Positions 37,992-40,738 of a stretch of DNA of 64,000 nt are shown piece by piece. A model generated the notes under the pieces. It was not told where the DNA came from, did not search any database, and saw only the letters and a list, made by a program, of their open reading frames with translations. Position 1 is the first letter of the stretch. Each line of letters begins with the position of its first letter. Origin of the DNA: a virus; IMG/VR virus record IMGVR_UViG_3300026521_000463, positions 1 through 64,000 of that record; one strand, given 5' to 3'. The position numbers and the translations under genes were made by a program.

Positions 37992-38846
37992 TTATTCTGG
38001 GCATTGAAATTTAAACATTTCTTTCCATTTTACTTGCGGGTCAATCGCATTGCCATCGTCGTCATAATAACAAGTTACAATCCCTGTCTCAGGGTCAAGA
38101 TTGGCATATTTTTGATTGTATCTTTTTTCTGTAAATAAACCAAGACTATCGTTATGAATTATTATTTTTGCTATAAATTTTTTTGATGATTTAATAGTAA
38201 ATTCAAAATCTTCATTATATTTATCCACAAAAACTTTATAAAAAGGATAATCTGGTAGAGTTGGCAAAACCTCTTCGACAGGTGGTGGCGGAGGAAGGGG
38301 TGGTAACGATGGGTCTGGCGGTGGTGCCGGATTTGGGTCAGGAATAATACCTAATAAAATTAAGATATCATCTTCGACTCCTTTTGCTTCAGGTAAAAAT
38401 TTGTTATAAAAAGCATCAATATCTTTAATTTTTATTTTTGAAATAAAATCAATAGTTACTTCTTTTTCAATAAAACCTGTAGGCGGGACATATTGGGAAT
38501 AATCTTTATCATAAATCATAGGAAATTCACTCAATGGAGGAAATTTTGCTTCTTTTTCAATTATAGGGTCGCCATCAACTTTCCCACCTATCTCACCTAT
38601 TTTAGTATCGTTAAATTTTAATCCTTCAATATCAAGATTAGCATTATATTCGTGTGAAATTTCTTCAAAAAATTCATCCATACCTTCTTCAAAAACAGTT
38701 TTACAATAATCAGTAAATGATTTGAAGTCGCAACCTGTTAAAATGTTTTTACCATTAGGAGATTGTATATAGTCATTATCAATCCATTTATGATAAGCAA
38801 CTTTTAAAGGAGTTTTAAAGTATTGATTTAAGACCATTTTATCCAT
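37992..38846 (-). CDS. hypothetical protein with proline-rich insert
   Basis: PDPNPAPPPDPSLPPLPPPPP. Confidence 0.7.
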   Translation of the reverse strand: MDKMVLNQYFKTPLKVAYHKWIDNDYIQSPNGKNILTGCDFKSFTDYCKTVFEEGMDEFFEEISHEYNANLDIEGLKFNDTKIGEIGGKVDGDPIIEKEAKFPPLSEFPMIYDKDYSQYVPPTGFIEKEVTIDFISKIKIKDIDAFYNKFLPEAKGVEDDILILLGIIPDPNPAPPPDPSLPPLPPPPPVEEVLPTLPDYPFYKVFVDKYNEDFEFTIKSSKKFIAKIIIHNDSLGLFTEKRYNQKYANLDPETGIVTCYYDDDGNAIDPQVKWKEMFKFQCPE

Positions 38847-39592
38847 TTATTGCCCTCCCCTAAAAATATCTTATCCTTTTCAATTTTTAAGTAATTATCA
38901 TCCATCTTAAAATTTCCTGAATTTATATAAATACTCTTGGGAAATTTTTTGTAGTCAAATTTATGTGTATGCCCTAAAATAACCACATCATTTTCTGAAT
39001 GTTTTAAAAATTCTTTAATAATATCATCTTCTGAATCACTAAATTTATCATAAAGAGTATTAAACATTTTTTCAGATTTTTTCACTTGCATAAAAGGTTT
39101 TAATAAAATGCTTATTTTAGAACTCAACCAAGCAAAAAATTTATATATCAATCCTTCAGATTTTTCTAATGTTTCAAAACTTGTTTCTTCGGAACAATTG
39201 TTCCCATGTGTGATAAAACATTTTGCTTTGCCATTTTCAATAATTACTTCTCTAAGATTATTACCTATAAGTCTCAATCCAAAATCGTGATTTCCTAAAA
39301 TTAACAAAACATTATCGTGAGATATCAACTCATCTAAACCTTCATAAAAATCTATGATTTTTTGAATTTTTTTGATGTTTTCTTCAGGTGTTACCGTGAA
39401 GTCGTCATATTTCCATATTTCAAGTGTATCTCCATTTAAAATAATTACATTTTCATCTTTTAATTTATTTAGATATTTTATTATTTTTTTATTTGTATCT
39501 TCATTTGAAAAACCGATATGTAAATCTGAAAAAACATATATTGTTTTTGATGTGTTTATTACTTTTTGTTTATCCTGCATTAACATTCGCAC
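38828..39592 (-). CDS. calcineurin-like metallophosphoesterase (LpxH-like)
   Basis: SDLHIG, LNGD, LGNHD, THG, GHTH, NSG. Confidence 0.88.
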   Translation of the reverse strand: MRMLMQDKQKVINTSKTIYVFSDLHIGFSNEDTNKKIIKYLNKLKDENVIILNGDTLEIWKYDDFTVTPEENIKKIQKIIDFYEGLDELISHDNVLLILGNHDFGLRLIGNNLREVIIENGKAKCFITHGNNCSEETSFETLEKSEGLIYKFFAWLSSKISILLKPFMQVKKSEKMFNTLYDKFSDSEDDIIKEFLKHSENDVVILGHTHKFDYKKFPKSIYINSGNFKMDDNYLKIEKDKIFLGEGNKWIKWS

Positions 39593-39860
39593 TTCCTTTC
39601 GCTAATGCCCCACCACAATCTATAGGGTCGCCTATTCTCGCTAAAGGTTTACCTTCAGCAAACACACTACCACTTCCTGCTGCTATTGCTCTGCCGTGTG
39701 GTGGCGAAGGACAAGACCCTGAATGAGGTTCTAATGTATCTCCTTGTCTTGCGACAGGTTTTCCATTCACAAAAACACTACCTGCTCCAGCATTTATATT
39801 CGTTGTAGGAAAACATCCGTGTCCTGCACCAGCGTCACCTAATCTTGAAACAGGAGGCAT
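39570..39860 (-). CDS. PAAR spike-tip protein (T4 gp5.4-like)
   Basis: PVSRLGD, PVARQGD, PLARIGD repeats; His/Cys metal ligands. Confidence 0.95.
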   Translation of the reverse strand: MPPVSRLGDAGAGHGCFPTTNINAGAGSVFVNGKPVARQGDTLEPHSGSCPSPPHGRAIAAGSGSVFAEGKPLARIGDPIDCGGALAKGSANVNAG

Positions 39861-40220
39861 TTATACCTCCACGAACCCAATGTGCTCAAACACATTGATT
39901 TTTTCAACTTTTTTATCATATTCAATCTCTTTACTAACTCTTTTACTGAATGAATATACAGGTGTAAGGTCGTGTCTTTTTAATTCTCTTTCTAAAATAG
40001 ACATAAAAAATGGCGCTCCGCCAATAAGCACTTTATCTACTCCATAAGTTATTGCCATAACTGATAAGTATTCTGCTCTTTTTATCATATCTTCAATTGT
40101 AGGTATTTCATCAAATGTTAGCATTGATTTAATTGTTTCTTTTTCTTGAGGTTCAAACACACCTGCTTCAATTTGTGATTGAGTAGCATTGTGCTGTGTA
40201 AGATTTAAAATGTTTTCCAT
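39861..40220 (-). CDS. Csx20/Csx15-like protein, putative cyclic oligoadenylate ring nuclease
   Basis: ILNLTQH.AT..Q...GV; VLIGG; L.PVYS.S.RVS.E; K..VFEH..F. Confidence 0.5.
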   Translation of the reverse strand: MENILNLTQHNATQSQIEAGVFEPQEKETIKSMLTFDEIPTIEDMIKRAEYLSVMAITYGVDKVLIGGAPFFMSILERELKRHDLTPVYSFSKRVSKEIEYDKKVEKINVFEHIGFVEV

Positions 40221-40229
40221 AAAAACTCC

Positions 40230-40679
40230 TTATATATTAAATTTGATAATACTATCAACTGTATCTGAATGTAAAATAAATCCTGGCATTTTTTCAAAAT
40301 CTTTGATTTGTTTTCTGCATTTATAAACAATTCTTTTTATTCTTTTAATTGTATCTTCTTTATATTCATTATAAGTAACAACAGCATCAAAATAAACAAA
40401 TCCGTTTTCATCAATTTCTTCTATTTGAATTGAATATATATTATCTACTTCATTTAATAAAACTTTTTCAAATCTTCTTTTTGCTTCAATTATAACTGAT
40501 TTTGAAATCATATCTTTTTCAATAGCAAATGGATAAATACTATATGCTCCACTCATATAAGTTGAATATACATCGCTAAATCCACCTTTTCTGAAAGGTT
40601 CAACTATTTTATCCGTAAAAACTTTTTCAGTCATTTTATCAAGTTTTAAAAGTGTTTTTATAATTTCAATTTTATTCAT
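40230..40679 (-). CDS. hypothetical protein
   Basis: cassette ATG. Confidence 0.7.
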   Translation of the reverse strand: MNKIEIIKTLLKLDKMTEKVFTDKIVEPFRKGGFSDVYSTYMSGAYSIYPFAIEKDMISKSVIIEAKRRFEKVLLNEVDNIYSIQIEEIDENGFVYFDAVVTYNEYKEDTIKRIKRIVYKCRKQIKDFEKMPGFILHSDTVDSIIKFNI

Positions 40680-40738
40680 GTGAATTCCTTTTTATGATTT
40701 TATATTATAATTATATCATTTTAAAATAAAAAAGTCAA
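40677..40738 (-). promoter_or_regulatory. class I promoter + RBS cassette
   Basis: TTGACT-N17-TATAAT ... AAGGAATTCACATG. Confidence 0.88.

Follow-up and report, generated by a model that had tools for sequence, protein, structure and literature searches.

AcrIII-1/Crn2 (DUF1874) was the first viral ring nuclease, and to our knowledge AcrIII-1 and AcrIII-2 are the only viral ring nucleases that have been characterised. Among the CRISPR-associated proteins, Csx20 and Csx16 cleave cA4 to linear products in a buffer with EDTA (Hoikkala et al. 2025, PMC12409355). Csx20 cuts cA3 only when the enzyme concentration is tenfold higher, and cA6 is cut by neither of the two proteins (PMC12409355). In a survey of 28,114 genomes of phage isolates Csx20 was found in four, Csx16 in two and AcrIII-1 in 36 (PMC12409355). 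Csx15 is a good sponge for cA4 and a slow nuclease, and it was not observed in phage genomes (PMC13148439). Csx16 and Csx15 are, together with Csx20, predicted to be small Rossmann-derived dimers. The preprint of another paper (PMC12730640) deals with 2H phosphodiesterases, which have a different fold.

Homologues of csx20 in Aca14-regulated operons of P. multocida have been proposed to be co-opted counter-defence genes (PMC13551039, 2026). Both phage homologues of Csx20 and the idea of counter-defence are already published (PMC12409355; PMC13551039). Our addition is a large clade of mobile copies, apart from the CRISPR-linked Csx20, with tandem forms and a specific set of residues.

The phage protein described below would do the same job as AcrIII-1/Crn2, i.e. 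that of a small, dimeric and metal-independent destroyer of cA4 acting early in infection (PMC12409355), but its fold and family are unrelated. The first-pass annotation, made from the sequence alone, had placed it in a different family from AcrIII-1, and indeed no Pfam match to DUF1874 is found at E<=1.

The locus and its genome

The window, i.e. the whole stretch of 64,000 nucleotides that was analysed, belongs to a 93-kb virus record of IMG/VR, judged to be about 42% complete. The G+C is about 25%. Among the genes in the window are T4-like replication genes (topoisomerase II, ATP-dependent ligase, an SbcC-like subunit and a DnaB/gp41-like helicase) as well as a glucosyltransferase. The phage is T4-like and probably from a hydrothermal vent: the run that may be its source carries the label hydrothermal vent metagenome, and runs of a second study contain near-identical sequence.

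A blastn search of the region against deposited phages gave nothing related. Among isolates, T4-like phages of Campylobacter and cyanophages have the most similar gp41-like helicases; the identity is at best about 32%, which is too distant for naming a host. There are no tRNA genes in the window.

The features around the gene of interest are the following, all on the minus strand:

40710..40738, minus strand: early-type sigma70 promoter, TTGACT-N14-TGA-TATAAT, with a 17-nt spacer and a TG extension; it heads the operon.
40230..40679, minus strand: first gene of the operon, 149 aa, with a weak match to Mrr_cat, a PD-(D/E)xK nuclease (PF04471, E 6e-4, just below the cut-off).
40226..40231, minus strand: Shine-Dalgarno sequence AAGGAG, 5 nt 5' of the ATG of the Csx20-like gene, as read from the sequence.
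39861..40220, minus strand: Csx20-like gene, 119 aa, ATG start; candidate viral ring nuclease of the Pfam family PF27247, 'MJ1673'.
39570..39860, minus strand: PAAR-repeat protein, 96 aa (PF05488, E 2e-21; phrog_281).
38828..39592, minus strand: calcineurin-like metallophosphoesterase, 254 aa (PF00149, E 1e-12).

The open reading frame of 119 residues at 39861-40220 (-) is as it was first reported, and its translation contains all the motifs quoted for it: ILNLTQHNATQSQIEAGV, DKVLIGG, LTPVYSFSKRVSKE and KINVFEHIGF. Compared with its closest orthologue, which has 82% identity and is found in the nearest relative of the locus (L002), the gene has a dN/dS of 0.17-0.26, indicating that the frame is a gene under purifying selection. 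An identical protein is also encoded on a 198-kb contig.

The order in the operon is promoter, 149-aa protein with the weak Mrr_cat match, Csx20-like protein, PAAR protein and metallophosphoesterase. The genes are tightly packed: the AAGGAG of the Csx20-like gene shares bases with the stop codon of the gene upstream, and its own stop codon directly adjoins the start codon of the following gene, at 39860. A terminator-like hairpin at 40023-40011 was disregarded, as it falls within the coding sequence, where the GC-rich GGAP codons are.

The first-pass annotation had made the Csx20-like gene the second one after a promoter at 40677-40738. This position is correct, with TTGACT-17-TATAAT found at 40738-40710 (-), where 11 of the 12 consensus positions are matched. 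The promoter is one of many. Sites that fit TTGACW-N14-TGN-TATAAT with at most one mismatch occur 20 times in the window, between 1196 and 57003, and all 20 are on the minus strand, while 0.23 would be expected by chance. They resemble the early promoters of T4, which are read by the host sigma70. The 20 sites are a family of early-type host-sigma70 promoters, by which the accessory region is divided into small operons. The spacers of these sites are T-rich and often nearly identical.

When the locus is compared with its nearest relative, L002, the adjacency of the Csx20-like gene and the PAAR gene is conserved. The Mrr_cat-like gene (149 aa) and the phosphoesterase gene (254 aa), on the other hand, are singletons with no counterpart at this place in L002, apparently recent insertions specific to the window phage. 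No PADLOC model matched either of these two genes. The phosphoesterase at 38828-39592 could be another enzyme acting on a nucleotide signal.

The PAAR protein (39570-39860) is like gp5.4 of T4, the tip of the spike, and starts one base past the stop of the Csx20-like gene. It is odd to find a structural gene so tightly behind an early accessory gene. A 278-nt metatranscriptomic contig, from a biofilm sample in a separate study, matches 39693-39970 without any difference. This contig from an RNA library runs from the 3' end of the Csx20-like gene into the beginning of the PAAR gene, with DNA carry-over being possible, and most of the Csx20-like gene has no cover in that run.

Further, searches with Csm1 and Cmr2 models gave no Cas10 in the 93-kb viral record, and there is no CRISPR repeat array within 10 kb of the Csx20-like gene, in agreement with the earlier remark that no cas genes are nearby.

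Relationship to Csx20

The window protein has no significant family in the Pfam copy searched or in PHROGs, and a sequence search of the PDB gives only a chance match to a hemolysin. Its sole match in NCBIfam is Csx20 (NF040559; E 4.2e-9, 36.8 bits), where residues 5-117 align to positions 2-122 of the 124 in the model. The same holds for its relatives, as all 47 that were aligned match Csx20 and no other family. In PADLOC four Csx20-type models match the protein with E-values from 1e-9 to 4e-6; a 'Csx15/20' model matches with E 6e-8. When the window family is aligned by hhalign to a set of true Csx20 proteins, a probability of 97.3% is obtained (E 2e-11, 105 columns). This set consists of 22 proteins from the phylum of a Thermoanaerobacter genome. 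No true Csx20 was found in 201 cyanobacterial genomes.

The layout of Csx20 that the first-pass annotation had given agrees with the consensus of these 22 bona fide proteins. Its suggestion that the phage protein is related to Csx20 is supported by matches to profiles of Csx20 only, by the hhalign result, by the same order of secondary structure elements, by shared structural neighbours and by conserved residues that are candidates for a catalytic role. The window protein is homologous to Csx20. The homology extends over the full length and makes the protein a member of the Csx20/MJ1673 superfamily (PF27247). This Pfam family, named 'MJ1673' in the atlas, appears in the precomputed labels of all homologues, and we did not find it mentioned in the literature. 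M. jannaschii was a control genome and scores above the Csx20 cut-off; MJ1673 presumably is located in the type III locus of this organism.

Being a homologue is not the same as being Csx20 proper, and here the earlier assignment is only partly right: the homology stands but the equivalog status does not, as the score is about half of the cut-off and the protein falls in a separate clade. The cut-off of NF040559 is 70 bits, compared with 36.8 bits for the window protein. True Csx20 in 22 genomes score 138-166 bits, and the range from 50 to 138 is empty. In the tree the 22 Csx20 are separated from 134 family members by a branch with 100% SH-aLRT support.

Profiles made from the two alignments separate the groups in both directions. 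For family members the scores are 79-181 bits with their own profile and 19-24 bits with that of Csx20, while a true Csx20 scores 182 bits on the Csx20 profile and 15.5 on the family profile. Compared with Csx20 (NF040559; PADLOC PDLC01659 and PDLC01384), the window protein is alike in length class, order of elements, invariant residues and predicted dimer. However, Csx20 is type III-associated, while members of the window clade are instead found on phages, plasmids and islands, and within the 93-kb record the window gene itself is neither in nor beside a type III CRISPR-Cas locus. The window protein is thus not a Csx20 in the strict sense, but a member of a sister clade that is carried by mobile elements.

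The copies in Rhodothermus phage RM378 (Rm378p002) and Pasteurella phage Pm86 belong to the same sister clade. They score 133 and 79 bits on the family profile, against 19-21 bits on the Csx20 profile, but share only 39-43% identity with the window protein. Copies of this kind have been put forward in print as co-opted for counter-defence (PMC13551039). The clade of the published csx20-aca14 gene of P. multocida is inferred from the Pm86 copy. In contrast to that gene, the window gene is not accompanied by an RHH (Aca14-type) regulator; instead it is found in a T4-like early operon, beside a PAAR gene. In other respects the window gene is an ordinary example of its clade.

Distribution of the clade

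The profile of the family was searched exhaustively against 1.84 billion representatives of clusters at 50% identity. The search yields 2,491 clusters when the limit is E<=1e-3, of which 788 remain at E<=1e-30, and the atlas clusters are 67-82% viral. At least 186 IMG/VR contigs encode a member. Among deposited phages, only RM378 and Pm86 carry the clade. Since it is missed by the curated Csx20 cut-offs, surveys that are based on isolates and strict models underestimate how common counter-defence by degradation of cOA may be in uncultured phages.

Members are also found on 21 plasmids, 14 of which are conjugative. One copy (L184:5983-6462) is on the 92-kb plasmid NZ_CP040940.1 of Caminibacter pacificus, one of the Campylobacterota of deep-sea vents. 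It adjoins a gene of the PAPS-reductase family and a gene with an LPD29 domain. Genes of these two kinds are typical of the polyvalent conflict proteins of mobile elements.

The surroundings of the gene vary. Across 139 related loci there is no conserved neighbour gene, and no cas genes are present in the annotated recurrent neighbour clusters of these loci. In viral loci the neighbours are genes for helicases, VRR-NUC, AAA_24, YqaJ, ParB, SSB and primase. The immediate partners in viral operons include about 10 matches to DNA methyltransferases, a Lar-like protein and a few HTH regulators.

Among 60 cellular matches many are in Saccharibacteria, Paceibacterota and DPANN archaea. The copies in CPR genomes are located in a variable island of small ORFs, between an RNase Y-ClpP block and a trigger factor-PPase-NusA block (loci L087, L089, L090, L100, L104, L108, L111 and L112), and in the tree they are intermixed with viral copies (11 label changes). 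This occurrence suggests to us a mobile island located in a hotspot of integration. That the gene belongs to the housekeeping set of CPR bacteria was considered and rejected, as the island is variable, the copies mix with viral ones in the tree and none of the 300 other Patescibacteria genomes searched carries the clade. Near the CPR copies there is a TrmB-like HTH gene of about 260 aa, the C-terminal 180 aa of which have no Pfam match; it is present on both sides in L087 and L104, and in two upstream copies in L090.

No match to Cas10 was found in five genomes that carry the clade, three of them small Saccharibacteria genomes. As no type III system was seen in these carriers, the target may be something other than type III CRISPR.

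Fold, conserved residues and possible function

The residues that are invariant in Csx20 have clear counterparts in the window family: H7, Q13, G75-A76, Y93, R98, F116 and H118 of Csx20 correspond to H10, Q16, G68-A69, Y89, R94, F111 and H113. These are retained in 89-100% of the single-domain members. In the viral set Y89 is retained in 83%, and it is mostly Phe that replaces it. The candidate active-site residues (His, Gln, Gly-Ala, Tyr, Arg and His) are therefore conserved, with a catalytic role that is putative.

The AF2 models of the window protein (pLDDT 95) and of Csx20 (pLDDT 92.7) have an identical order of strands and helices. The predicted fold is a five-stranded sheet flanked by helices, in a homodimer. 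Further, the top two viral structural matches, both uncharacterised, are identical for the two models; the TM-scores to these two structures are 0.92 and 0.71 for the window protein and 0.67 and 0.57 for Csx20.

There is no structure of Csx20 in the PDB, and a Foldseek search against the PDB gives no match at E<=1e-3. The best matches to solved structures are racemases (Z 6.8-6.9), which are middling and generic. CARF, SAVED and Crn1 chains align over the full length with Z 4.5-5.9, a range that is called common and is below the racemases. The proteins concerned are Crn1, Csm6, Cam1, Csx1-Crn2, Cap4, Cap5 and CalpL, all with Z-scores within the range of chance arrangements. The window protein as modelled resembles Crn1 (Sso2081) and the CARF/SAVED proteins in its Rossmann-like core, in the conserved loop that follows strand 1 and in the Gly-rich loop that follows a central strand at the dimer axis. 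However, there is no match at the level of sequence, and the window protein is much smaller.

The window protein is predicted to form a homodimer. In a model that includes two AMP the ipSAE is 0.76, whereas the best of three controls gives 0.00. The mark used for ipSAE is reached by 20 of 30 proteins solved as same-chain pairs and by one of 23 solved as single chains, counts that are only a rough guide here, as our model used its own alignment and a small molecule. Between the dimer runs at least 96% of the contacts agree, and the pLDDT of the partner is at least 88. The predicted interface is symmetric and consists of residues 66-78 (the IGGAP loop and the next helix), 36-45, 89, 91 and 114-119. 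The prediction is supported by natural fusions, as 26 of 120 longer relatives are tandem double-domain proteins; natural tandem proteins of the family are listed as P0121-P0140 and P0241-P0249.

The two halves of the tandem proteins are not equivalent. In the 16 proteins that could be split cleanly, His10 is retained in 31% of the N-terminal halves, being mostly replaced by Phe, and Lys107 in 87%. In the C-terminal halves the numbers are 87% for His10 and 50% for Lys107. In single-domain members, by comparison, both residues are retained (94-100%). The asymmetry, although seen in a small sample, would agree with two composite sites that span the dimer; in a covalent pseudo-dimer one of the two may decay.

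Judging from the precomputed Pfam labels, the domain is also fused to C-5 DNA methylase, HTH domains, WYL with PF25583, DUF4116 and pentapeptide repeats; the fusion proteins are P0205, P0173, P0180, P0140 and P0121.

We consider it probable, though far from certain, that the window protein serves the phage against type III CRISPR as a cA4 ring nuclease that is dimeric and needs no metal. The data behind this are the homology, the conserved residues, the topology of the fold, the predicted dimer, the early-type promoter and the distribution over mobile elements. The substrate, the catalysis and the effect in vivo we infer from characterised relatives. The protein would be a small homodimeric CARF-like phosphodiesterase, made early from a promoter that is read by the host sigma70. 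By analogy with Csx20 the dimer would bind, across its two-fold axis, the cA4 made by Cas10 of the host, and would cut it without metal to inactive linear products. The cA4-dependent effectors of the type III system would then never be switched on, so that the outcome would be an anti-CRISPR of the AcrIII-1 type on a different fold. The first-pass annotation had proposed cA4 or cA6 as the second messenger that is degraded. For cA6 there is no support, as characterised Csx20 cleaves cA4 and not cA6 (PMC12409355).

It should be noted that the window family and Csx20 differ in places where the ligand is expected. The loop QGDFGAT of Csx20 is IGGAP in the window family, i.e. three residues shorter, and the C-terminal RFRxY of Csx20, with its nearly invariant Arg, is replaced by GFVEV. 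In addition, Lys107 is invariant in the window family and is its own. These differences indicate that the specificity may not be that of Csx20.

Such ligand-facing loops, with IGGAP, GFVEV and an invariant K107, would suit a counter-defence protein that is not a cA4-specific nuclease, but that degrades or sequesters cA3, cA6, a CBASS oligonucleotide or several of these. We find this unlikely. Csx20 itself cuts cA3 at high concentration and Csx15 behaves like a sponge (PMC12409355, PMC13148439). Against plain binding, His, Arg, Lys and His are strictly conserved in the family, which suggests catalysis, and the sole characterised relatives prefer cA4. The Csx15 paper also argues that sponging would do poorly against cOA in the quantities that type III systems make (PMC13148439). 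With such other ligands, CBASS or some other defence that uses signals could be the target, in place of type III CRISPR or in addition to it; the clade does occur in genomes without a Cas10 match, and SAVED domains of CBASS effectors are among the neighbours of the fold, with Z 5-6.

A related idea, which we regard as rather unlikely, is that the clade is a distinct enzyme family with trans-dimer sites, each formed by His10 of one subunit and Lys107 of the other, and with substrates shifted or broadened to cA3 or to signals of the CBASS type. Such composite sites are hinted at by the asymmetric decay in the natural tandem fusions. If this were true, phages, plasmids and islands would have in this family a general tool against signalling, and among viral ring nucleases it might be the most widespread family in nature.

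The cA4 ring nuclease proposed above, as well as its variants with other ligands, would be a counter-defence protein. A role outside of defence would be in the metabolism of nucleotides or RNA ends: within the replication and repair set of the phage the protein could act, for example, on 2',3'-cyclic phosphate ends or on some other small phosphodiester. Viral copies are indeed found in replication and recombination modules, together with helicases, VRR-NUC, AAA_24, YqaJ, SSB and primase; further, the family has no neighbour that is conserved throughout, and no cas adjacency was seen in the loci examined. Early accessory phage genes are, however, commonly located among replication genes. The patchy spread over phages, plasmids and islands is more what one expects of a conflict gene than of a metabolic gene, and the only detectable relatives are CRISPR-associated ring nucleases, so that we find such a role improbable.

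Finally, a ligand sensor, neither enzyme nor sponge, that signals the cOA level of the host to a phage partner and thereby tunes the infection is brought to mind by relatives fused to HTH (P0173) or to WYL and PF25583 regulator modules (P0180), which recall the CARF domains that occur in Csa3-type regulators, but it is very improbable for a bare domain of 119 aa with no output domain, no conserved partner gene and conserved residues that look catalytic.

For the preferred cA4 ring nuclease, concrete starting points for mutants and constructs come from the residues that are conserved, from the predicted dimer and from the tandem fusions.

True Csx20 and the mobile clade are also found together, in the genome of Thermoanaerobacter sp. 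A7A (G206; L147 and L152). This genome has a true Csx20 (157 bits) as well as a clade member, which is on a separate contig of 1.7 kb with a high stated coverage and scores 36 bits on the Csx20 model and 149 bits on the family profile. The pair may represent a mobile element facing a type III host that bears Csx20.

A true Csx20 domain is further found at the C-terminus of three long frames of 572-605 aa (L164:443-2158(-), L166:1495-3234(-) and L168:64-1878(+)), two of which have a weak N-terminal match to the CARF domain of Csx1. These frames are probably self-limiting Csx1-Csx20 fusions, an architecture that is already known, as the PADLOC model CARF_HEPN_CSX20 exists.
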